A stretch of DNA of 63,827 nucleotides, counting the filler, from Reclinomonas americana ATCC 50394 (taxonomy: Eukaryota): assembly GCA_048213135.1 (NCBI GenBank). It is 16 parts of 16 records of this genome, joined end to end, with 100 filler letters (N's around TTAATTAATTAA, not from the genome) between each part and the next. Parts side by side here need not be neighbours in the genome. Positions count along the whole stretch, not along the records: positions 48,344 to 56,357 come from AFZH01017426.1; 15 more parts are not named here. One strand, given 5' to 3'. This document shows, one piece after another, positions 3,429-63,827 of this stretch. Position 1 is the first letter of the stretch. Every line of letters starts with the position of its first letter. The notes under the pieces are model-generated. The model did no database searches. It was not told the DNA's origin and worked only from the letters and a program-made list of their open reading frames with translations. A program made the position numbers and the translations under genes.

Positions 3429-6400
3429 TCAGTCAACCAAGAAAATCACAAAAAGCCCTGCCCCCAGACAACTTGCAGACCCTCGATTGAGTCGCGGCAG
3501 TTGCAGCATCTTGGCACGCAGGTGCTCTTTCAACGCCTGCTGCGACGACGTCGGCGTGCTGGGTCCCTGATCCGTCAGCGATGCGCTGTCAGCACGCACC
3601 GGCTGCGCCGTGTCGTCGTCTTCTGACGAGGACGACGTCACTCGCTGGTGTGCATGGGTCTTGCCGCCCTCGGCGCTGGAGGGCAACGAATTACGCCGAC
3701 CTCCAGCCCGTCCGTTGGTTGGCGCTGCCGTGGTGGCGTTCTGCGGCGGCGACGCATGCAGCGGGCCGCGCACCTCCGGCATCGGTGGCTTCGGTTTCAA
3801 CAGTGGTGAGCGCGCCGATTGCGGTGGCGACGGCACCGACAACTCGCACACAGCAGCACTGATCGCGTTGAACAGGTGCAGCGTATCCACATACTCGGGG
3901 TGCTCTTCGCCCAGCGATGTGCGCTGCGCCAGCAAGCAGAACTGTGCGAGCTCCAGCGCATCGGCGGTGCGGTTCACGAACGGCAGCAGCGAGGCCAGCG
4001 CCTTGGCACTCTCCACTGTGTCGTGATGTTCTACACACGGCCGGGGATGAGGGCTACGAAGAGGCAGGAAGCATAGCTAGCATATGTACCGGATCCCAGA
4101 ATGCGCCGACGCATTTGCAGGTTCTTCTCGTGACGCTCCACAGCCTCGCCCATGCAGTTGATGCTGCTCAGGCAGTTGGCGATATTATGCGCCGACACCA
4201 TGGCTACAAACAGGGACGCGCGGACGTCAGTGCGCAGGTGTCCTCGCCAGCGACACGCGAATCGACACGCAACTGTGCGGATGCTCCGGTCCCAACTCCA
4301 CTTTTTGAATGTCAAACGTCTGCTCAAACATGACGAACGCCTCGCCCACCTTGCCTTGAGCGTACATTGCTGCGTGCCGACAATGTGAGTGTACAATCAA
4401 ACAAAAGAGCACGGACACACGCACGCACCAGCAGCACAGTTGTTCATGGACCACAACCTGAGAAGAAGTGGAATCAGTCCGACATGTGCGCAGACAGCAC
4501 ACAACGACAGCAAAATGTATGCTCACGTGTGCTCATGTCGCGGGCCAAGTTGCCGTTTCCGCTCCGACAGGCATGCGTCGTACAATTCGGCAGCCTCGTC
4601 ATACCGTCCAAGTGCAAATAATGAATTACCCTGCAGCGTGCCACCATGATGAGCATTGCATGTGTGCACAAGAGAATGAACGTGTAGTTCGATCATCGCA
4701 CCAGGTTTGCCATGGACCTGCGCGCCGCGAAAGTGTCAACACAGGACGACAACTCAGAAGCCACACACACACAATACCCACCAAAGCGTGTCCGGTGCCT
4801 CCAGCCCCAACAGTCGCTGACGTCGTTCGAGACACTCGCGATGCAGTACCACTGCTTCCTCGTGACGTGACATGGCATCCAGAGCCAGGGCACGGTTGTT
4901 GAGGGCGCCACATGTCCACGGATGGTCGACACCGCGCGTACGAATCATGGAGTCGTAGACCTTGGTGTGCAACGCAAACGCGTCCCTGCATCGCCAAGGA
5001 CACGCTTGAGGGAGTCGCGGGAGAGAGAAAAGAAAAGACCTCATCTCGAACACGCACTGGTGCCGGTTGAGCAGCGAGAGAACGTTGGCGAGCGACGTGG
5101 CCTCGGCCAGATACTCGTCGCTGTCGACGCCAAACGACTTGTCGTACGTCTCCAGCACGGCGGCATGCAGCGCAGCGGCCTCGTGTGGCGACGCCCGCGT
5201 GAGCGCCAGTGCCAGGTTGTGCATGGCGGCAATGGTCAGTGGATCATCGTCACCCAGCGTTTGCTGTCGAACTGTACACACATGACGATGCAGATCGGCG
5301 GCACGTTTGTGCACACCCATCACATCCAAACAATTGGCCAGATTGCACATGGCACCGAGCGTCTCTGTGTACACAGTGTCAGCAATTCCAGCAGACACAC
5401 TCTCCGTGGAGCCGGGCGACCACGCACCGACTGCATCGCTGCCGAGGATCTCGATTCGGCCCTGCACACACTCCTCAAAGTAGGATATCGCCTGCGAGTA
5501 GTCGTCGAGGCGCATGTACACAGAGCCCACTGCGTGGACCGAGCGCAGTGTGTCGCGATGCTTGGGACCCAGCACCTCCCGACGTGCACGCAGCGTCGAC
5601 TCTGCGACAGGTGATATTTGACACGCGATGAGAGAGCGCGAAACACACAAGAGAATGCATGGATCGCGCAGCAGTCGCACCGTGAATCTGGAGAGCGTCC
5701 TCTGCAGCTCCAAGATTCAACTGGTCGTTGCCGAGATGGTACATGCGATTCAGCGTCGACGGATGCATGTCACCAAAGAGTTGCTGTGCGTGGCACATAT
5801 AGAGTCGACAGTGAGGAACAATGCGCACAGCACGGTGCGGCAGTGCACGCAACATGACGAATGCGTGCCGACGTCGTATCCAGTGCGAGACACTGCCATC
5901 ACCAGCGGTGAGTGGCCATGGTAGCAGTGCGAAACGCCCATTCTTTCTCTTGCTTCGTCCACTCACCTCATCGAACCGCCGTAATCTGCGCCACACGTCG
6001 TCTGCCAGCTCCTCTGCCGTGCGCAGTGTCTCGATATTCGCCCCACCCAAATTATGATCAAACAACTCCAGTGCCTTGCGGTACAGCGTGGTGGCGGTGT
6101 CGGTGTCGCCGTCGGCCAGCAACAAACGCGCCGACCGTCGCACAGCGACTGGATCCGAATCGACCTCTGCAAGAAACAACAAGTCAGCGATATCGAAAAT
6201 CACGGATAGCAGCTGTCGCACGCGCAACTTTCGTGCAACTCGCCCCACACCGCCTCGATCGCCTGGCTCATCATGCCGTCACGACTCACCATGGCCGCCA
6301 CCTCGAGCAGAAACTCGACCACCTGCTCCCGCAAAACGCCATCGCATGCACTCAGCAGGCAAGGTCGAATCGCAGCAATCACCGTCTCCGTCGACTGGAA

Positions 6401-39738: not shown

Positions 39739-42700
39739 TCACAGCAACACACATTTTCCCTTTTTTGCACGTCGTCGGCACTCCTCCAACAACTTGATGG
39801 CATACACCGTGTGCGGATGATATTCACCAAGCACCGCTCGCATACCATCTACACACTCCACCAGCATCGCCTCTGCCTCGGCCCATCGTTGCTGCTTCAT
39901 GAGCAGGTCACCGTAGTTGTGCATCGTCGTCAATGTGCCTTCATGCCTGTCACCCAGCACCGCTCGAAGCCACTCCATACACTCACGGTACACATCAGCA
40001 GCTTCTCCCAATGATTCTGGTGTGCCTCGATTGGTGAGAGAAGAAGCAAGATTATTCATCGATACGAGAGTGCTCGGATGTCGATCTCCCAGCGATGCTC
40101 GCTTCAACTGCAAGCATTCTCGTTCAAGTTGAATCCTCTCTTCCAGACGACTGTCATCATGGATGCATGTGGCAAGATTGTTCATGGACATCAAAGTATC
40201 TGGATGCTCTGCTCCCAGAACCAGTCGTCGCATCTCCCAACACTGTCGAAAGAGAGTCTCAGCATCAGCAAATCGGTTTCGATTCTTGTGATACATAGCC
40301 TGCCAGTGCATCGTCCACATCGAGTCCGGATGACTCTCACCAAATGTTGCACACAGCCGCTCATGACACTGCACGAGAAGTGACAAGTCGTCTGTACAAA
40401 AAGCGAACAACATCAAGCAACGGAATGCGTCAATCTTATCCAGCACAGTCATCTCATCCCTCCCATCCGTCTCCCACTCTTCACACAATCGCCACGCCCG
40501 TTGCCACGCAGCGTCGCGTTCGTCCAACTGACGTAGCATATCAAACAACAACGCACAAGAATTCGCCACCACAATGGCGAATCGTCGTCGCAGTGGACAT
40601 CTGTGCGCTCACCACACTCCGTCACACGACGCATAAGCGATGATGCCACTGCTTCGTTGAATCCGCGAGACGGCAGATAGCCTCCTGCACACTGCTCACC
40701 AATCCAATCCACAGCGCCACACTGCACCAACAGCCCATTCACACCAACAGCATCCCTCGCCCACATGCCATCATCCTCACCTAACCGTCGCCACAGTGTG
40801 TGAAGCACATCAAGCAAGTCTCGCGACACCAACAGCTTAGCGTCACTGTCAATCTGCGTATCAATGCCACTCAGCACACAGCACACCAGTCGCACAATCA
40901 GTCGCTGCGCCCGTGACACGGCATCTACACACCGTCCCACAATCCATCCAGCAATCTCGTCGTGCACACGATACTCCACCACCGCACTGCCACCCTTCCC
41001 CTCCTGCTCACCACACAACACACGAGCGACGCTGTCCAAGCTGCCACTAACACCCACCGTCACCAGATTTGACAAGCACAGATCCTCCAGCACACCCTCC
41101 ACTCCGTCGTCACCACCCATAAACTCATCTCGCAGCGTACGCACTCGCTGCTCCTCTACCACACTCATCTCGTCAAAGTGCAGTCGCTCACCCACCACCT
41201 CGGGTGCACGCCGTCGTCTCTCCTGTGCCAGCTGATGCAGTCGCAGTCGACGCACAAACAGACCCAACTCCACCAATCGACCTGCCGCCTCTTCATCATC
41301 ATCCACTGCCGCCTGCCTATCATAACCACCACCCACAGCCACCGTCATATCGGGAATCACTCGCAGCACACCAAGCGCCACTCGTGCAAGTGCCACTGTC
41401 ACTGGCAAGCCGAGCTCCTTGCACGCCGTGATCAGCACCAGCAGACGACGTGCTGCTGCTGTCTGTGACATCACATTGCGTTCCAGCAGCTGCGACAGCG
41501 CATCGCCACCGATGCCACTCAGCACCTCCTCCAGTCGCGCGCCCACCAGCTGTGCTGGCGATTGTGACAGCAACCAGCTGTATGCCAGAGAAGAGAAGGA
41601 GAAAAGAGAGTGAGCCTTCTCGTCCGCACACCTTACTCACTCATCCACTCACCCAACACAAGCACTCACTCGCAGTGCACTCTTCTCCTGCTGTCCACTC
41701 TCCAGTGCCTCCACGATCCTTCGTCGCACATCCTCCGACACGACACCATGCAGTCGCCCCTCCACCAGCTGCACAATATCCTCGTTCTCCACACTCTCGA
41801 CTCGCACACACTCCACCTCCACCTCGTGCATCATCGAGTCACGAATCTTATCTGCCACCTGCCAATGTCGACTCGTCACCACCACAATCGGTGCCACCAT
41901 TCCACCTGCACACAGACGCACACGCATGATGCACATCAAGTCAGGATCCAACATACGAGCAAGAATGAGAATTCTGTCACCCCGACACGAACCCTCATCA
42001 GCACACTGAACAACACTCCTCACTTGCTCCGCCGATCCCACATTGTCCAGCACCATCACTCCACTCGAGGCGTGCATCAATTGTCGCAACAGACGACGTG
42101 CTGGCTCCACCTCACCACTCGCCAGCAGCGCATCCACCTGACCGGCCATCCTCCGTCCCTCCGCTTCGTCCACTCGCATCTGTGCCGTCACAAAGGCACG
42201 TAGACACTCGCCCAGAGCACTCTCCGCCTGCAGCACGTAGCATGAAGAGAGAGAGAGTCAGAATGACAACAGAAGAGATGATGCAAGAAAAGACACTGGT
42301 ATTCACCTTTACATGCTCCCTCGCATCGCCCACATGACCACGCATCTCCACTGACACGGCCGATCCCCTCCATCGGCGAGTCGCCAGCAACTCGGTCACC
42401 AGCAGCTCGGCCAGGAATGACTTGCCAGTGCCACCTTCACCCGTCAGCACAACCACGATTGGATGATGTGCTGCGCAAGTAACATCCACCACAGACAACA
42501 AGATGAGACACATGAATGCGGAGAAGGAAGGAAGGGAGAATGAGAAGGATTACCCAACCTTCCATAGCATCCACAATACGTGTGGCGAGTGAGGCTGCCA
42601 GTGCACGCCGACTTGGGAAGCGGAATGTGGTCACTGGATTGACTGTGCGGGCGATGAGTGCTGTCATTGATTGGCGACTGCTGTCGGGTGCTGTGTGGCA

Positions 42701-43982
42701 CGGAGAGTGAGTGTATGAACGCAACAATGCACATTGAATGCAGATCTATCATGGAGCGCACCTGCAGCTGAGGGAGACGAGGGAGAGATGCTCATCAGGT
42801 CGTCTCCTTCGTGCACTTCCATTCGCATCTAATCAATCACATGCAAGTGAGAAACAATATCTGCAAGCGACCACATCTGCATGCAGATCTACACAACTTG
42901 CACCACATTGGCTGCTATCGACGCTTGGTCTGCTTGACTCAGTGCGCCTGCATTCACACAATCAAGACAGCATCAGCTTCCACAATCCGTCAAATCATCA
43001 GCCATCTCTCTCCTCTCTCTCACCATCACGAGCCTCGTTCAGCTGCACCACCAATTCCTCTTCCACATCCCTGCCAATCTGCAGTCGCCGCACAAGCTGG
43101 TGCAACTCGCCCTCTCCTTCTCCTCCGTCACCGAGTAGAGGCTCAAAGAGTGCACGAGCTCGTGCGGGACTCGCTTGCTCAAACACCTCCCTCATTCGCA
43201 CAATCGCATCGCGCTGTGACAATCAAAGAGTGAGAGACACAATCACACAGAGGGAGATCATACTCCTCCTGCTTCCATCTCCACTCATTCTCACGCACAC
43301 TCACCACATCACCAACTGGAATCAGACGAGCCGGCTCGTCACGCGGGTGCTCTCGATGACCCGCCAGCAGCAAGATCGAGCAGCACAGCATCGCATCAAA
43401 CGAACTGCAGTCGTGCAGCTGTCCTCGCTGACGCCACTCGCGCACCGTCTGCTGCTCCTTCTCATTCAGCTGAACACACATGGTGACTCCGTCGGGCATG
43501 GTGCTGCATGGTGGGAAGACAGAAAGAAAGAGAGGATGCTGGTGAGTGAGGAAACGTGTGTGACAAGAAAGAGGGCGATTCATCAGGGATAGAGTGTGGA
43601 GCCACTTGCTGTTCTCTTCGCTCTTCTCTCTCTCATTCACATCTCCATCATCCTTCCCTACACACTCACCGCACATCACGCTCACTCGGCGCCTTGCACC
43701 ACTCATCGACATGATTCACACCAGGATACGAATCGAGAAATGCCGGCAGCACTTGCTCGAGTTTGGATTGCAGAGCGCGGGTGCATGGGCGAGACAGAGC
43801 TTTGGCAAGACGCACCATGCATTCTTCATCACCAGCATCGTGATGATGACTGCACGAGAGAGAAGCGGGGAGAGTGACAGGGAACGAATCACACACAACG
43901 TGAGAACGATGATGAATGCATCTGACAACAACACAATGAGAGACAAACGCAACTCACGCGGCACTCCACTCCCACTCGCCAT
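39739..43982 (-). pseudogene. NLR-like copy C, frameshifted upstream of the TPR region
   Basis: Walker A GEGGTGKS is intact. In the large last exon a 22-nt deletion relative to copy B at 40596/40597 shifts the frame (ORFs 41573-40449 and 40572-39739). An assembly error cannot be excluded. Confidence 0.75.
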
Positions 43983-44428
43983 GATGATATGTCACAACAG
44001 AAAATAGCAACAGCACACAGACAGATGCAGAGGGGAATGACACACTCTTGTGTCTCCGGGCGACACAATAAGAAGCGGAGAAATGCAACAACTCACTCTC
44101 CTTCTCTCTTGCACAAACGCACACACGCAAAGGGGAATCACACAGGCACAGAACAGAACGAGAACGCACAAGCTCACTTCCGCTCAGCAGCAGCGCAGCA
44201 ACACACAGTTGTGACTATTGGGACATGACGTCACCGAGATTGCAACATCCTAACGAAGTCTGCGCGGCAATGGGGGAGGTCGCAACACGAAGCTGCACTC
44301 CCGTGACGTGCGTTGCCATTGCGAGAACTCGCAGATGCAAACACCAGCAAGCTTGTTTATCTTCTCACCATCCTCGATCCAAGACATCACAATATCCACG
44401 TTCCCCCTCACTCTACTCTCCTTTCCTA

Positions 44429-44810
44429 TCACAGAACCACACAGCACCGTGCATCCGCCGTCTGCCCGCTCGCCTGCAGCGGTGTCCGCTCGCTCGTGGC
44501 CTTGCCACCCGCCGCCGCCGCGCCCGCACTGCGCGAGGTCGACGTTGCCGTGGCGCGGCTCTTGGCACTCTGCGGCGCCGACTGCGGGTCGAACAGGTGC
44601 AACGTGGGGTAGTTGGCCGAGTCGACTGCAAAGGGGAGAAGGTGAGACGGCGAGCAGGAAGTGGGGAAGAAGAGAACGCACTTGCATCCTCGTCGTCGAA
44701 ATCGCCAGCCGGCGCCTGCAGGTGCACGTCGTCTGCCGACACCACCATGGCACCAGCAGTTGTAGCAGCAGCAGGAGCGGCGGCAGTGGTTGTTGGTTGT
44801 GAATTCTGTG
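44429..44810 (-). pseudogene. Duplicated last two exons of the TBC/EF-hand gene
   Basis: Near-identical to 50160-50547 (NSQPT..AGAMVVSADDVHLQAPAGDFDDEDA / VDSANYPTLHLFD...RCCVVL*). No upstream exons are present. Confidence 0.85.
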
Positions 44811-44828
44811 AGGAGGGAAAAGAGCATA

Positions 44829-47800
44829 TCAATAGTCTGCACTCAACCAGCATCTACAGTTTAACGTGCTCACAAGACCCAATACCGCGCCAGCCTCAGA
44901 TGCGCTCTTGTTGGCCTTCCTTGCACGTTTCCGCCACTCGGCCAAACACTTGATGACATTTACAGTGTCCGGATGCTGATCACCAAGCATCGCTCGCCGA
45001 CCATCCACGCACTCCACCAGCAACGCGTCTGCCTCGTCCCATCGTTGCTGCTTCATGAGAACAATCCCGTAACCAAACATCGTCAGTAATGTGAACTGAT
45101 TCCTGTCTCCCAGTATCTCTCGCGATTTTTCCAAGCACTCAGCGCACAATTCTGCAGCTTCCGCCAATGATGCCGGTGTGTTTTGTTGATTGAGAGAATT
45201 CGCAAGATTGTTCATCGAAGCGAGAGTGCTCTGATGCCGATCGCCCAGTGCTACTCGCTTCAGTTGCAGGCACTTGCGTTCCAGTTGAAGTGACTCCTCA
45301 AGCCGACTCCCATCCTGGATACACTTTGCAACACTGGTCATACAGGCTAATGTGTCGGGGTGATCCGCCCCAAGAACCAGTTGTCGCATCTCCCAACACT
45401 GTCGCCAGAGTGCCTCAGCATCAACTCGCTGCGGTCGATAATAGAGGCTCAGAGCTTTGTAGTGCAACGTTGTCAGCGAGTCCGGATGACACTCACCAAG
45501 TGTCGCACACTGCCACTCATGAGATTGGAACAAAAGTGGCAAGTTACCATCACAAAAAGCGAACCACATCAAGCAGCGCAGTGCATCAATCGTATCCAAC
45601 ACAGTCATCTCGCCACTGGCATCCCTTTCCCAGTCCTCACACAGTCGCCACGCCTGCTGCCACGCTTCTGCACAATCGTCAGCCAGGCGAAGAATGTTGA
45701 ACAACCACGCGAGACACCTCGCTACCACATTGGAAAACCGACATTGCACAAGATCCATATCTGCATCATCATCTCCAAGATCTTCAAACTCCGTCACTCG
45801 TTGTACAAGCGACAAGGCCAAGGCTATGTTGAATCCACGAGGCGGTAGTTTTTGGTTTACGCACTGCTGACAAATCCACTCCACAGCCCCACACTGCACC
45901 AGCAGCCCAGCCACACCAACCACATCACTCGCCCACATGCCATCATCCTCACCCAACCGTCGCCACACCGTGTGAAGTACATCGAGCAAGTCACGCGACA
46001 CCAACAGCACACCGTCGCTGTCATTCTGCAAGTCAATGCCACTCAGCACACAACACATGAGTCGCACAATCAGCCGTTGTGCCCGTGACACTGCATCCCC
46101 ACACCGTCCCACAATCCACCGAGCAATCTCATCGTGCACTCGGTACTCCACCACCGAGTTACTTTCTCTCACCTGCTCGCCAGACAGCACACGAGCCACA
46201 CTGTCCATGCTGCCACTGACACCAACCGTCACCAGATTCGACACGCACAGACCCTCCAGCACATCCTCCACTCCTTCACCAACACCACCACCACCCACCA
46301 ACTCATCACGCCGTGCACGCACTCGCTGCCTCTCCTCCTCACTCATCTCGTCAAACTGCAGTCCCTCACCCACCACCTCTGGTGCACGCCTTCGCCTCTC
46401 CTGCGCCAATTCATGCAATCGCAGTCGACGCACACATTGACCCAACTCCACCAGCCGACTTGCCGCCTCCTCATCTTCATCACCACCATCCACAGCCACT
46501 ATCATATCGGGAATCACTCGCAGCACACCCAGCGCCACTCGTACGAGTGCCACCGTCACTGGCAAGCCGAGTTCCTTGCACGCCGTGATCAGCACTAACT
46601 GACGACGCGCGGCAGCTGTCTGCGACATCACATTGCGCTCCAGCAGCTGCGACAGTGCATCGCCACCAATGCCGCTCAGCACCTCCTCAAGTCGTGCACC
46701 CACCAGCTGCGCAGTAGACTGTGACAGCAACCAGCTGCATGACAAGAAGAAGAGAGGGAGAGAAGAGTAAGTCATTTCATCTGCAACAGTTGCTCACATT
46801 CATTCACTCACCCAACACACGCACTCACTCGCAGTGCACTTTTCTCCTGATGTCCACCCTCCAGCGCCTCCACAATCCGAAGTCGCACATCCACTGTAAC
46901 CTTGTGGCGCAATCGCCCCTCCACAAGCTGCACAATGTCCTCGTTCTCCACATTCTCCACTCGCACACATTCCACCTCTGCCTCGTGCAACATCGAGTCA
47001 CGAATCTCATCCGCCACTTGTCCATATCGACTCGTCACCACCACAATCGGTGCAACCAGACCACCTGCACATATGCATGATGCACATCAAGTCAGAATGC
47101 ATCATCAAAGCAAGAATGACGGTTCTCTCACTTGACAAAAACGCACCCTCATCAGCACATTGAACAACACTCCTCACTTGCTCAGCCGATCCCACATTGT
47201 CCAGCACCATCACTCCACACGATGCGTGCATCAATTGTCGCAGGAGACGACGTGCTGGCTCCACCTCGTCACTCGCCAACAGCGCATCCACCTGACCGGC
47301 CATCCTTCGTCCCTCCGCTTCATCCTCCCGCATCTGTGCCGTCACAAAGGCACGCAGACACTCGCCCAGAGCACTATCCGCCTGCACAATGTGGCAGAAA
47401 GAGAGAGAGAGTCAGAATGACAGCCAAAGAAATGATTTAACATGAAAGACAACATGCATATTCCTCAGCACACCTTCACATGCTCTCTAGCATCACCCAC
47501 ATGACCACGCATCTCCACAGACACGGCTGAACCCTTCCATCGACGAGTCGACAGCAACTCGGTCACCAGTAGGTCGGCCAGGAATGTCTTGCCAGTGCCA
47601 CCATCACCCGTCAGCACCACCATGATTGGCTGACGTGCTGCGCAAGATATCATCCAACATAAGACAAACATGATGAGACACATGAATGTGGAGAAGGAAG
47701 GGAGGGAGAATGAGAAGGAACACCCAACCTTCCACAGCGGCCATAATGCGCGTGGCAAGTGAGGCTGCCAGTGTGCGACGACTTGGGAAGCGGAATGCGG

Positions 47801-48446
47801 TCACTGGACTGACGGTGCGGGCGATGAGCGGTGCCTCGAACGGGAGACTGCAGTCTGGTGCTGTGTGGCACAAAGAGAGTGAGGGTGAGCACAGCCATGC
47901 GCACTCCATGCAAGTCGATCATAGAACGAACCTGCAGCTGAGGGAGAAGAAGGGGCGAGACATAATGCGTCAAGTCGGTGATGCACACGCTCCACCTCAT
48001 CGCGAATCTAACCAGTCCCATGTAAATGAGAAACGAGTCATATGCAAATGGCAGCCAAAGATGCACATCCACATAACTTGCTCCATATTTACCGGCGGTG
48101 GCGAAGACTGGTTACCTTGACTCAGCGCACCTGCATACACACACCGCCAATCAGCACCGCAATTCAATCAATCCACACGTACAAGCACCAGCGATCTCTC
48201 TCTCTCTCACTCTCTCTCTCTCTCTCTCTCTCTCCTCTCTACCNNNNNNNNNNNNNNNNNNNNNNNNNNNNNNNNNNNNNNNNNNNNTTAATTAATTAAN
48301 NNNNNNNNNNNNNNNNNNNNNNNNNNNNNNNNNNNNNNNNNNNTTACGTACTACGACGCGACCACGTCACTACTACACCACCACCACCACTACGACACCG
48401 ACCACTACTAACTACAACTACACCACCTACGAACGACACCACGACG

Positions 48447-48513
<67 letters not shown>

Positions 48514-49734
48514 CCCACTCACCATCACCACCCTCGTTCAAAATTACTTCGACTGTTTGTGAATTTGAAGTACCTGGAGGCGGCCAGGAAAAAACATGTG
48601 TCAGTTCCGTTGCAATACCTAGAAACCGAGAGTTTCAAAGAAGCTAACCTGGATGGACGCTGAGTCGGAAGTAATTTAGCTCCATTTCTGATAACTTGTG
48701 CCGATGGACAGCTTCCTGTTGACGTCCTTGCTGCCGCATGTCTGATAGCTTGAGCCTGACTTGTTCGTGCCAGACAGGAAGCAGCAAATGTCCATGTTCC
48801 TTTATGGCGTGCACGAGTGCACGAACATAGGGTGATTCAAATGCTGGAAGACGAACACGAGAAATTTGTGAGTTTCAATGCATTGCAGACAAATCACTGC
48901 ACTGGTTACTCACCACCCTCATGTGCTTGCCAGCCATGATAGCAGGCAAAGCCGACAAACACATTGTCAGTCAGACGACCCTCGTCAACCGGACTGGCAT
49001 GTGAACTGCACCAACCGAGAGTGAGTGAAATAGCCCGTTTGCGACGCGCCACATCAATCCATCCACGCACCTGTCGACTGAACGGCAACAGTTCATCAGC
49101 AAGATCAACACCGCACGCCTTGACATCTTCTGCCGCAGTTGGATCATGCAGTAGTCGGCGAGCTTCAGTGATTTTTCTCCGTTCAGCTGTAGCCAAATTG
49201 GTTAACTCAACATGTCTTCAACGAACACAAGCATGCCACACAAGCTCACCAGGCGTGTTTTGGGGACGTGATTGGCATCGCATGGGAGGAGCAACAAGTC
49301 TCCGTCACTCGCCAGCCCGTGACCAGAGAAGAAAAGAAGTACGCACTCGCGTTCCTCGTTTACCATCTCTTGCACGAATACGTCAAGCACGGAGTGCATG
49401 TCATCGCCCACCACATCAGATTGTGGACAAACATGGAAACCAATCGCCTCAAGCACTGGCTGCAGGAGGGCTGCGTGTGTGCGAGGAGTGAGAAAATTGA
49501 CGAAGACACGTGCACGTGCACGTCACGTGCACGTCAGAAAGGAAGATCCACTCACCCACATCATGTGGCGGGTTCCTCAGCGCTGCATAGGGTCCCTCGC
49601 CGTCGCAAGTGTTGCCGATGAGGACAGCCACGCGTTTGTATCGTCTGCAAGAAGATTAGTGCAAACGAATGATAGTTTGGCACCAACGACGAGAAGATGC
49701 GCAACTCTCGCAGCACTTCACTCCCGCTTGCCAT
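44829..49734 (-). CDS. NLR-like protein copy D: caspase-family (peptidase C14) domain + NB-ARC-type STAND NTPase + TPR
   Basis: Exons 49734-49706, 49644-49556, 49470-49250, 49186-49071, 49005-48914, 48843-48649 and 48573-48523 splice in frame: RVAVLIGN..LRNPPHDV..LEAIGFHV..LLFFSGHG..LLPCD..LILLMNCCR..FVGFAC..SPYVRAL. A phase-1 intron spans the spacer to the exon at 48130, followed by GDGGTGKT, VLDNV, VTSR, VHD and TPRs. Confidence 0.85.
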
Positions 49735-50159
49735 GATGATGCGTCACAATAAGAACACAAGAGCACACTGACAGGTGCACAGGGGAAAAACACACACTGT
49801 CTCTCTCTCTCTCTCTCACACACACAATAAGAAGCGGAAAAATACAACAACTCACTCCTTCTCTCTCAGGCACACACACGCACACAGTGGATAAGGTCAC
49901 TGACACAGAAACGAGAACACAGCTCACTTCTGCTCACAGCAGCAGCAACGACCTTCCGGAAATGAGACAGTGGGACATGACTTCGTCGGAGTGCTATGCA
50001 TGCTGCATGCTGCTCACAAGGCATGAACAGCTTGTCGCCGAGAACAGATATTTGTACGTGCACATAGTCCGTGCGGCTTAGAGTGTTCTTGGGACGTGGT
50101 GACCAACGTCGGCCTTCAAGGCCTGCGCGACGCATTCTTTCACTCCCCTCACTATTCTG

Positions 50160-52778
50160 TCAAAGAACCACACAGCACCGCGCATCCGCCGTCTGCCCGC
50201 TCGCCTGCAACGGTGTCCGCTCGCTCGTGGCCTTGCCACCCGCCGCCGCCGCGCCAGCACTGCGCGAAGTCGACGTCGCCGTGGCGCGGCTCTTCGCACT
50301 CTGCGGCGCCGACTGCGGGTCAAACAGGTGCAGCGTGGGGTAGTTGGCCGAGTCGACTGCAAAGGGGAGAACGTGAGACGGCGAACAGGAAGAGGAAAAG
50401 AGGCAAGAGGAAACGCACTTGCATCCTCGTCATCGAAATCGCCAGCCGGTGCCTGCAGGTGCACGTCGTCTGCCGATACCACCATGGCACCGGCAGTTGT
50501 AGCAGCAGCAGGAGCGGCGGCAGTGGCTGTTGGTTGTGAGTTCTGTGGAGGAGAGGATAGGGTAAGTGGGAAGTGTAAAGAGAGGAAGAGGGGGAGGCAT
50601 CGTGAACAGAATGAGAGACAGCGACAGGAAAAGGGGCAGGAAGAAGAAAAAGACATGAGGAAAGAGGTAGGAGGAGAGGACGACAAAGGAAGAGGAGCAG
50701 GAGGAGAGGGAGAAGCGAGGAATAGGAAGAGAGGAACAGGAAAGGAAAGAGAGACAGAGAGAGCAAGAGCAAGAGGAAAGGATAAGGGAGAAAAGATGAA
50801 GACACAAGAATGAGAAAGATAAAGAGGAACAAGAAGAGGAAGAACATAAGGTGGAGAGGAGGAGCAAACGGAACAGGAACTGGAAAAGGATGGGGAAAGT
50901 AAAGAACAACAGCTGGAGAGGAGGAAGAGAACCCGGAACGGAAGTGTAAGAGAAGAGGGAAGAGAAGAGGACGAGAAACGAAGAGGAACAGCAGGAGCAA
51001 CAGACACATGAACATGTAGAGGGACAGGAAGAGAAAGTGGGAGAGAAAAGGAACAGGAGGCAGAGATAAACGCAGAAGAATAGGAACAGAAGAAGAAGAA
51101 GAAGAACTGGAACACGAACAAAGAGGAGAGGAACAGAAGAAGAGGAAGGGGACGAGAACGTGGAAGAGGAACAGAGAGAGGAAAAGGACCAGCAACTCGA
51201 GGAGGTGAAGCGGAAGTGAAATAGGAAGAGAAAGAGAAAGAAGAAAGTGGATCTGGAGGAAGACGGAAGAGGAAGAGGAAGAGGGCAAGAAAGAGGAGCA
51301 CGAACAGGATCAGGATCAGGAATGGAAGTGAAAGAGCTGTAGAAAGGAGAAGAAAGAGAATGAGACAGAGAAGACGAAGACGAACAAAATAGGAACAGGA
51401 CCAGGAACGGAAGTGTAACAGAAGGAGGAAAGGAGGAAGAGAAAGGGGGAAGCGGAGAGGACGAGAAGAAAGCGGAGAGGACGAGAAGGATGAGGAGGAT
51501 GTAGTAAAAAGGAACAGGAACATGAAACGACGAGAACGACAAAAGAAACAAGATGAGCAAGACAAAGTGAATCAAGCGAGAGAGGAGGACGAGGAAAACA
51601 ACCAGTGACCAGCTGTCTTTCTTCTTCCTCTATGCTCATACTTACCGATGCCGCCGCCGCCGCCGACGCGCGCTTGTTAACATTGCGCCGCGCCGACGCC
51701 GCCTTGGTGCGCTGCACCTTCTTGTGGATGGAAAACGCCTCGATAATGGCCGGCTCGAGATACGCCCACTGCACGAGCTCGTCGTAGCTGCGGCAAGCAG
51801 GTCAGACACGATAAGCCACTGCTGGAACATAAGGCCTCTCACCTGATCTTGCCGTCGTTGTTGATGTCAATGTTCTGCGACACATCGCGGGTGAGATGCA
51901 CAGAAGACACCAGCAGACTCTAAACTGCACTCCAAGCTCATGATCGCGCTGGCGTTGCCGCTCGACGGGTCGTTTACCGATAAGCTGCAAAGCTGCTCAT
52001 CTCTTGCTTCACTACGAATTCTCTTCAATCTGTTCGTGCTCCTCAGCAATTGAAGTCTCTCCGTTCAGCCGTACTTGTCCACTATTCTCAACCCACAACT
52101 TGCATCCTCCTTCATCCCTTCACCCTTCACCTCCCCGCTCACCTCAAACACACTATCCGTGTCCGACGCCATTGACGACCGCACACCGACACTGTTCACC
52201 GTCTGCACCAGCGCCGCCAACTCCGCCTTGTCGATGAACCCACTCTTGTCGCGATCGTAGGCCTGGAACACGACTGCGAAAGAGAAAAAGCTTCAGAAAC
52301 AGGAGCAAGAAAAGTGACGCAAGAGATAAGCAACCTTGCAGCTTGTCGGTGAACGATCCGTCCAACAGCAACGCCAGCGCGGTCATGAGCTCGCGGAATG
52401 TCAGCACTCCATCGCGATTCTGGTCGAACAAGTTGAAGAGCGAAGTGGCCTCTCCCGGGTGCCGTTCCCAGCTGCGAGGTGAATGGGAAGGGGGACGGGG
52501 GGAAAGGAAGAGGCAAAGCTGTGAGCTCAAGTGACAACAAAGGAGACTTGTTCGCCTGAGATATGTCTGCAGCTCAGTGTCCTTCTCTATAACTTTCTCC
52601 CTTGGCGCTCTTGCGAGTGTGTGCGCGTGCGCGCCCCTCAAGTGATTAATTCGGTGCATAGCATGTCGATTAAACCTCTCTCTCCTCTTGTTTGTGATTG
52701 TGCGTGTGTTTCAAGTGTCAACAAAAAGAGTCTCACTCGTCGCTGAGAAGTTGTTTTCGGTACGCAAGTCTCAGTTGC

Positions 52779-62634: not shown

Positions 62635-63827
62635 TGCCGTCACAAAGGCACGCAGACACTCGCCCAGAGCGCTCTCCGCCTGCAGCATTTGGCATGGAGA
62701 GAGAGAGAGAGTCGGAATGACAGCATCATGAAAAACAACATGCATGTTCCTCACACACACCTTCACATGCTCCCTCGCATCACCCACATGACCGCGCATC
62801 TCCACTGACACGGCCGATCCCTTCCATCGACGAGTCGCCTGCAACTCGGTCACCAGCAGCTCGGCCAGGAACGACTTGCCAGTGCCACCATCGCCTGTCA
62901 ACACCACAATGATTGGTTGACGTGCTGCGCAGGAATCATCCACCACCAGACAACATGATGAGACACAAGAATGTGAAGAAGGAAGGAAGGGAAAATGAGA
63001 AGGAACACCCAACCTTCCACAGCGGCCACAATGCGCGTGGCGAATGAGGCGGCCAGTGCACGTCGACTGGGGAAGCGGAATGTGGTCACTGGATTGATGG
63101 TGCGGGCGATGAGAGGCGTCTTGGATGGGCGACTGCTCTCTGGTGCTGGGTGGCACAGAGTGTGAGAGTGACGTCGACAGCAACGCGCATTTCCATTTAG
63201 GGCTCTCCTAGAACACACCTGCAGCTGACTGAGAGGAGGGTGAGATGCTCAATGTACTCAGCTGCTGTTGCATGCACTCCATCTGCTCAAAGCACTTAAA
63301 AAGTGAGAAACAGTGAGCAATCTAGAATTGACCGCCTCTTCATGAAAATCCACTCAACTGGCTCAAGGTGTGCCAGCAGCATCGTCTGGCCTGCCTGATT
63401 CAGCGCACCTGCATCCACACACAGCCAGACAGCATCAGCTTCCACGCTCAATCAAATCATCCACCATCTCTCCTCCCTCTCACCATCACGAGCCTCGTTC
63501 AGCTGCGCCACCAATTCCTCCTCCACGTCCCGCAGTCGCCGCAAAAGCTGGTGCAACTCGCCCTCTCCTCTTCCTCCACCACCGAGCAGGGGCACAAAGA
63601 GTGCACGAGCTCGGGCAGGACTCGCTTGCTCAAACACCTCCCTCATTCGCTCAATCGCATTGCGCTGTGTGACAACGAGAGAGTGAGAGAGCAGAATCAC
63701 ACACAGAGAGGGAGATCCCACTCTTCCTTCTTTCCATCTCCTTCTCATTCTCGTACACACTCACCACATCGCCAGCTGGAATCAGACGATCCGGCTTGTC
63801 TCCCGGCTGCTCTCGATGACCTGCCCG
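62635..63827 (-). CDS. NLR-like protein copy E, partial (HEPN-like type N-terminus and Walker A exons)
   Basis: Exons RAGHREQPGDKPDRLIP, RNAIERMREVFEQ..QLNEARD, PLIARTINPVTTFRFPSRR, VVLTGDGGTGKSFLAE and AESALGECLRAF. Truncated by the window end and a spacer. Confidence 0.85.

Follow-up and report, generated by a model that had tools for sequence, protein, structure and literature searches.

The stretch of DNA analyzed here, referred to as the window, is 63,827 nucleotides in length and comes from Reclinomonas americana ATCC 50394 (assembly GCA_048213135.1). It is composed of 16 contigs stitched by 15 identical 100-nucleotide spacers (44 N, a 12-nucleotide stop linker, and 44 N). Sequence within about 100 nucleotides of any spacer should be regarded as unreliable. 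The DNA is eukaryotic with short GT-AG introns, and its minus strand carries a tandem gene family encoding a P-loop NTPase followed by tetratricopeptide (TPR) repeats. Five copies (A to E) are present, with pairwise identities of 80.8-83.8% between their bodies. Copies A, B, C, and E share a family-type N-terminal module of approximately 200 amino acids, for which none of the three copy C exons has a Pfam match at E ≤10. In copy D, a predicted caspase-family protease domain (Peptidase_C14) is found instead. The sequence supports placing this domain at the N-terminal position of the family, with family sequence on both sides and in frame with the NTPase-TPR body.

The protease cassette consists of the six exons that follow exon 1 of copy D (49644-48523). 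All six have AG/GT borders, the introns within the cassette are 61-85 nucleotides long, and together with exon 1 the exons form one open frame. Exons 1-7 total 793 nucleotides, or 264 codons plus one base. An earlier note on this DNA, made from the sequence alone, described five unrelated exons. That count agrees with the six found here if the 51-nucleotide exon 7 is taken as the partly homologous one.

The C14 domain was identified with a Pfam scan run exon by exon on cassette exons 2-6 and with an HMM (hidden Markov model) built for this purpose. Exon 3 (73 amino acids) matches Peptidase_C14 (PF00656) on its own with 33.4 bits against a cut-off of 21.4 (E 5e-8). Exon 6 aligns to positions 181-229 of the 233 in the same profile at E 0.21, below threshold, and exons 2, 4, and 5 taken singly have no Pfam match. 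The HMM, built on 13 C14 domains that the search with exon 3 had retrieved, has 230 profile positions. The spliced cassette product scores 102.7 bits against it in a single collinear alignment spanning positions 4-205. Taken by itself, exon 3 reaches 59.5 bits, and none of 20 shuffles exceeds 0.6 bits; the 43 bits that come from the other exons are unaffected by the choice of relatives. Cassette exon 2 lines up with the (I/V)GN that is conserved across the 13 relatives. The histidine of FSGHG is aligned with a histidine in 13 of 13, and the second cysteine of NCCR with a cysteine in 11 of 13. Copy D is thus predicted to hold a complete C14 domain, with both catalytic residues and both halves of the fold. 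The earlier note had proposed such a domain with a His-Cys dyad and had suggested a C14 HMM search on the spliced product; the Pfam match of exon 3 and the score of the spliced product bear the proposal out.

Two other candidates in this region were rejected. A second C14 copy within the window was not found, as the remaining tblastn matches all have E ≥5.4 and no other C14-like sequence is present. A gene on the opposite strand over the cassette and the flank of the gap was also considered, and the four other frames (three plus, one minus) gave no Pfam match above threshold.

The relatives of the protease are distant. A search for close relatives of exon 3 returned 59 candidates, none at E ≤0.001. 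An exhaustive HMMER search with exon 3 gave 40 matches, 22 of which were checked by Pfam. Fourteen of the 22 carry C14; the other eight are PD40-type repeat proteins, which were discarded as spurious, their similarity being to a biased part of the query. The true C14 matches are 25-44% identical to exon 3 over about 60 residues; in two of them FGE-sulfatase is present as well, an architecture of bacterial type. Ten nearest clusters were looked up, of which two are rotifer proteins named "caspase family p20" and eight are without a name. NCBIfam gave a weak match to "caspase, EACC1-associated type" (22.6 bits against a cut-off of 140). Among solved structures, all nine distinct sequences matched by exon 3 are the MALT1 paracaspase, at a non-significant E of 0.26, with the GHG and the L-x-P-x-D-A stretch that follows it aligned. 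PF00656 is the only profile reported for exon 3 at E ≤1, and CHAT (PF12770) is absent from these results. PADLOC found no match for the protease exons.

The 5' end of copy D is of the family type. The upstream region, exon 1, and the first bases of intron 1 align with copies A, B, and C at 76-78% identity over 268-279 nucleotides (blastn). The upstream homology extends for about 215 nucleotides, and the similarity fades a few bases into intron 1. Exon 1 has the length, phase, and GT donor of the family and is identical to its counterparts in A, B, and C at 23, 25, and 24 of 29 nucleotides. The peptide it encodes is MASGSEVLR in copy D and MASGSG(M/V)PR in copies A-C.

Family sequence resumes at the end of cassette exon 7. 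Around the exon 7 donor, 24 of 28 nucleotides are identical to copies A, B, and E, and 23 of 28 to copy C. A search on both strands with the junction 28-mer of copy A, allowing up to four mismatches, finds exactly five sites in the window, one in each copy. By blastn, positions 63501-63467 of copy E align with 48540-48506 at 85.7% identity over 35 nucleotides (E 2.6e-4), and beyond the spacer positions 63434-63396 align with 48156-48118 (E 1.6e-6).

The intron downstream of exon 7 contains an expanded (GA)n tract and a spacer (48244-48343). Both contig ends at this spacer carry (GA)n, and microsatellites are likewise interrupted by several of the other spacers. About 105 nucleotides on the cassette side of the spacer are of an odd low complexity, like other contig ends, and are presumably a read-end artefact. 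The two contig ends map 33 nucleotides apart in intron 4 of copy E. Because the ends lie this close in a single paralogue intron and carry (GA)n on both sides, the two contigs are likely neighbors, and the spacer very likely marks a break in the expanded (GA)n tract within one intron. The contig with the cassette ends inside the family intron, so the cassette would be embedded in a family gene even if the adjacency were wrong.

The frame can be followed across this intron. The cassette leaves in phase 1, and the next large family exon (132 nucleotides) is entered in phase 1. Direct joining of 48523 to 47860 gives an open frame of 1149 amino acids. Joining through an optional 15-nucleotide exon gives 1154 amino acids, with a single stop at 44829-44831. 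In the resulting 13-exon model all 12 introns are GT-AG (11 if the 15-nucleotide exon is skipped). Copies A, B, C, and E have the same exon lengths and borders as the body of copy D. In copy A, direct exon joining opens a frame of 1069 amino acids, in which the NTPase-TPR body is open for 869 codons; this validates the joining rule. The earlier note had stated that copy D keeps the upstream region and 29-nucleotide exon 1 of the family, that homology resumes at the last codons and donor of family exon 4, and that all intron phases fit, including the one across the spacer. Each of these statements agrees with the alignments and open frames given above. It had also named non-adjacency of the contigs at 48244-48343 as grounds for rejecting the fusion, and by the comparison with copy E they are likely adjacent.

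The body of copy D is encoded by five exons, with coordinates in Table 1. Walker A (GDGGTGKT) and Walker B (VMVLDN) motifs can be read from its sequence. The IVVVTSR motif resembles the "TTR" motif of NB-ARC, and the order of the three motifs presumably resembles that of NB-ARC as well. The P-loop exon matches nSTAND3 (E 1.8e-4), AAA_16 (E 0.002), and NACHT (E 0.05) in Pfam, all below their cut-offs, and PADLOC gives only generic ATPase matches for it. An HMM built from five NB-ARC-TPR proteins aligns with the P-loop and the Walker B/TSR portions of copy D in collinear order. For the region after the NTPase, an Atlas look-up returned DUF7779 and WHD_NWD1 with scores ≤0.82, which are leads only. 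The large last exon matches TPR_10 (E 7e-23) and TPR_12 (E 1.4e-17). A search with this exon found 253 proteins at E ≤0.001. In the best 120 of these the match is confined to the TPR part (26-55% of the query), and most are bacterial kinase-TPR proteins; six carry NB-ARC, one carries CHAT, and none carries PF00656. The NTPase appears to be STAND-like and divergent. Of the NLR label applied earlier to the family, the P-loop NTPase, its motifs, and the TPR repeats (TPR_10/TPR_12) stand, and an exon-by-exon assignment to NB-ARC or NACHT does not reach threshold.

Table 1. Positions of the copy D features and of the five family copies in the window.
Feature	Positions	Start codon (ATG)	Strand	Remarks
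Upstream region (promoter / 5' UTR)	49735..49948		-	common to copies A-C
Exon 1, 29 nt	49706..49734		-	start codon; MASGSEVLR; leaves in phase 2
Cassette exon 2, C14 start	49556..49644		-	KRVAVLIGN strand; AG/GT; HMM positions 4-30
Cassette exon 3, C14 core	49250..49470		-	catalytic His (FSGHG); Pfam PF00656
Cassette exon 4	49071..49186		-	strand with catalytic Cys (LLMNCCR); D-x-C-R column
Cassette exon 5, C14 continued	48914..49005		-	HMM alignment collinear, no gap at exon joints
Cassette exon 6, C14 C-terminal part and linker	48649..48843		-	collinear in HMM alignment
Cassette exon 7, 51 nt	48523..48573		-	last 18 nt and donor homologous to end of family exon 4; leaves in phase 1
Intron with expanded (GA)n and 100-nt spacer (48244-48343)	48131..48522		-	
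Optional 15-nt exon	48116..48130		-	conserved in five copies; GT after it only in D; keeps phase 1
Pre-P-loop exon, 132 nt	47729..47860		-	phase 1 to 1; same length and borders in A, B, C, E; required for open frame
P-loop (Walker A) exon	47474..47637		-	GDGGTGKT; generic P-loop Pfam matches below cut-offs
Walker B-like exon	47147..47381		-	VMVLDN; aligns to Walker B region of the NB-ARC HMM built here
IVVVTSR exon	46829..47064		-	weak collinear HMM alignment
Large last exon	44829..46718		-	NTPase remainder, helical region, TPR repeats, stop; Pfam; open frame
Copy A	body 28061-31153	32414	-	N-terminus of family type
Copy B	body 32899-35855	37144	-	N-terminus of family type
Copy C	body 39759-42783	43982	-	N-terminus of family type
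Copy D	body 44914-47998	49734	-	N-terminus is the C14 cassette
Copy E, partial	62635 to window end	beyond window	-	N-terminus of family type (exons 3-4 visible)

Two of the neighboring copies show signs of decay. In copy B, the P-loop exon (35396-35559) is missing the 21 nucleotides that encode Walker A, yet the frame is open to residue 1063; copy B is a paralogue without a P-loop or one in decay. In copy C, the frame ends at residue 825, and the AG acceptor of the large exon (39673-41563) reads AA. This large exon shows as two overlapping open reading frames (ORFs), 39742-40608 and 40452-41636. Copy C is probably a pseudogene.

Codon usage and substitution rates were used to assess the state of copy D. 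In the proposed frame the cassette has a codon-usage log-odds of +24 bits; the other frames give -129 and -100 bits, and the introns -32 to -42 bits. GC content at third codon positions is 0.55 in the cassette and 0.57 in the family. Between the bodies of copies D and A, dS is 0.45 and dN/dS is 0.33, with a value of 0.19 in the first 300 codons. Codon usage and dN/dS argue for copy D being a live gene. With copies B and C decaying, the intactness of copy D is not automatic in this array.

Copy D is probably a live single-chain protease-STAND-TPR receptor made by replacement of the N-terminal exons of the family, judging from the sequence. In an ordinary family member, the segment from intron 1 to the last 18 nucleotides of exon 4 would have been replaced by the six-exon protease block. 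This exchange would have kept the promoter, start exon, splice phases, and downstream exons of the family. The product would be approximately 1150 amino acids in length, with an N-terminal C14 domain, a divergent STAND-type NTPase in the middle, and C-terminal TPR repeats. The direction of the exchange can be approached through the copies themselves. An unrooted tree of 606 shared nucleotides has the form (E, A, (D, (C, B) 98) 73), in which copy D is nested with 73% support. With the other N-terminus in copies A, B, C, and E and a nested position for D, the protease is modestly likelier to be the derived state, a newcomer, unless the root lies on the branch of D itself. Gene conversion could blur this tree. 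The earlier note left the direction open and proposed an exchange within the locus; the window contains no donor for the cassette.

The sequence itself shows the exon structure, domain content, flanking homology, and frame continuity of copy D, along with signs of selection; its transcript structure, catalysis, activation mode, and substrate are features that we infer. By analogy with known systems, the TPR region would bind a trigger, and the NTPase would then oligomerize. The N-terminal proteases would be brought together and become active by proximity, as in initiator caspases or the MALT1 paracaspase. The active proteases would cut a substrate that executes a defense or death response.

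Several observations weigh against this reading. The link between cassette and body crosses an assembly spacer, and its 100 nucleotides are filler that does not give the true length of the gap. An alternative form of a small exon in this intron (48130-48078, 53 nucleotides) breaks the frame, with a first stop at residue 301 and a protease-only product. The aspartate found two residues before the catalytic cysteine in 12 of 13 relatives is an asparagine in copy D; this change could alter the P1 preference or alter or weaken substrate binding. The NTPase, with its five exons scanned singly, falls below every STAND family threshold, including those of NB-ARC (PF00931) and NACHT (PF05729). It scores only 10.7 bits against the small five-sequence NB-ARC HMM (50 shuffles scored ≤0.7), and a phmmer search of the NTPase module against 160 collected proteins gave nothing significant. 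Searches of two very large protein collections turned up nothing close to the protease domain or to the whole protein, and the fusion therefore has no comparative support.

The small exon gives rise to the first alternative, in which the protease is free and no fusion is made. Transcripts would contain the 53-nucleotide exon or end in the gap, and the product, of about 300 amino acids, would stop soon after C14 and lack the NTPase-TPR part. The small exon-like element (48078-48130 in copy D, 63380-63434 in copy E, with equivalents in A-C) is more conserved than its surroundings and has a good acceptor. In its 41-53-nucleotide form the frame is open in each of the five copies, the lengths differ by multiples of three (9 and 3 nucleotides), a GTT donor is conserved in five of five, and the exit is in the wrong phase. 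If left unspliced at 48523, the frame of copy D is also open through (GA)n into the gap. Use of this long form would cut each copy short right behind its N-terminal module, copy A included, yet the body of copy A is open for 869 codons and shows a dN/dS of 0.33 against D. A productive isoform that skips or shortens the 53-nucleotide exon must therefore exist; in this family the long form cannot take that role, but it may be an alternative exon under regulation that yields effector-only proteins. As the family donor is also kept exactly at 48523, a free protease in place of the fusion is unlikely.

The second alternative, considered quite improbable, is that copy D is a dead chimera, such as a rearranged pseudogene in a birth-and-death array, or an assembly artefact in which contigs of different copies are juxtaposed. 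The decay of copies B (21 nucleotides of the P-loop lost) and C (stop at residue 825) fits such an array. The window is joined from 16 contigs with uniform spacers, and an assembly can collapse tandem paralogues or put them in the wrong order. Copy D itself has an intact ORF, canonical splice sites, the catalytic pair, host-like codon usage, and a constrained body. The left contig itself terminates within family intron 4, which places the cassette in a family gene regardless.

It is similarly improbable that the C14 domain is an integrated bait, which the receptor would monitor for attack by a pathogen protease inhibitor or modifier as plant NLRs do with their integrated domains. In favor of a bait, integrated non-canonical domains are widespread in plant NLRs, as reported in PMC4759884 and PMC7761493, and the Asp-to-Asn change could mark a non-catalytic copy. 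Against it, the domain lies in the exact place of the family N-terminal module, which is the usual effector position, and retains both catalytic residues.

The protease-receptor design that is predicted for copy D is already described in bacteria and fungi (PMC3501461, PMC10197012), as the earlier note had stated. Metacaspase-NACHT-WD40 proteins are reported to be widely distributed in bacteria (Asplund-Samuelsson et al. 2012, PMC3501461). Among the bacterial metacaspases described there, NACHT is found in 15 and NB-ARC in two, and TPR is among the commonest partners. Copy D resembles the bacterial C14-NACHT-WD40 and C14-NB-ARC proteins in combining C14, a STAND-like NTPase, and repeats in one predicted polypeptide. 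It differs from them in being an intron-split eukaryotic gene of 12 or 13 exons with TPR_10/TPR_12 repeats, and in having an NTPase too divergent for a NACHT or NB-ARC call exon by exon. There is also no sequence closeness to the bacterial fusions, given the low identity of even the best C14 relatives noted above.

PMC10197012 and PMC9815663 describe NLRs of fungi whose N-terminus is a caspase-related CHAT domain or an S8 protease and whose genes often lie beside a gasdermin gene. The 19 N-terminal Pfam profiles of fungal NLRs given in PMC9815663 include CHAT and S8 and do not include C14. As in the fungal NLRs, whose repeats are TPR, ANK, or WD40, the present family has alternative N-terminal modules. 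Unlike the fungal CHAT-NLRs, the protease of copy D matches Peptidase_C14 and has no CHAT match at E ≤1. A gasdermin-like Pfam match was found in none of the 44 ORFs of at least 140 amino acids outside the array, a scan that intron-split genes would escape.

In the apoptosome, the NTPase oligomer formed by Apaf-1 or CED-4 activates caspase-9 or CED-3, a separate protein recruited via CARD. The likeness to copy D is by analogy only, in that an NTPase-driven oligomer would activate a caspase-fold protease by proximity. Unlike in the apoptosome, the protease of copy D is predicted to be part of the same chain, and neither a CARD nor a death-fold domain was detected. MALT1, to which exon 3 showed only the non-significant match, is activated by dimerization; unlike copy D, it has death and Ig domains and no NTPase. 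Animal relatives of Apaf-1 have varied N-terminal adaptors (CARD, DD, DED, or TIR) and sometimes TPRs, and the account of these adaptors in PMC2246300 does not mention a protease fusion. Literature word searches, which were not exhaustive, found no C14-STAND-TPR fusion described for a eukaryote other than fungi.

Few receptors are described with a caspase-fold protease of their own, namely the bacterial metacaspase-NACHT/NB-ARC proteins and the fungal CHAT-NLRs. If expressed, copy D would join them as a eukaryotic member whose protease is a true C14 domain. It fits the picture of STAND receptors recruiting death or defense effectors modularly and does not overturn current views. The particular value of copy D lies in its paralogues, which form a natural control, with the same promoter, start exon, and NTPase-TPR body and a different, unannotated N-terminal module. 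The effect of an output-domain swap can therefore be studied directly. The breakpoints, in intron 1 and 18 nucleotides before the end of exon 4, indicate how a swap can spare the frame.

A further and doubtful proposal is that the family is built for effector exchange. The 29-nucleotide start exon (phase 2) and the junction at the end and donor of exon 4 (phase 1) would serve as splice "adaptors", and the small exon as a switch. If this were true, whole multi-exon effector modules would be swappable among paralogues. Skipping or shortening the small exon would give the full sensor-effector, and its long form a free caspase-like protease of about 300 amino acids. Such an NLR family would diversify and regulate its output end and not the sensor end alone, in a eukaryote outside the groups with described protease-NLRs.

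Worth adding are a few observations on the rest of the array and the window. The sequence just downstream of the copy D stop (44426-44818) is repeated just upstream of the copy D promoter (50157-50557), over about 400 nucleotides at 92.8% identity. This value is well above the 76-84% found between copies and indicates a recent duplication or conversion of the copy D flank. At the spacers (for example, 39362-39461 and 48244-48343), contig ends often lie in microsatellites followed by short periodic stretches that are TACG-like or GTC-rich; these periodic stretches look like read-end artefacts. On the minus strand at 4757-6278, two adjoining ORFs match TPR_10/TPR_12 (E 1.3e-27), and this TPR gene falls outside the A-E family by DNA similarity. 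Also on the minus strand, the neighboring ORFs at 15956-16750 and 17673-18917 both have Methyltransf_24 / O-methyltransferase matches (E ~1e-11) and look like a duplicated methyltransferase pair.

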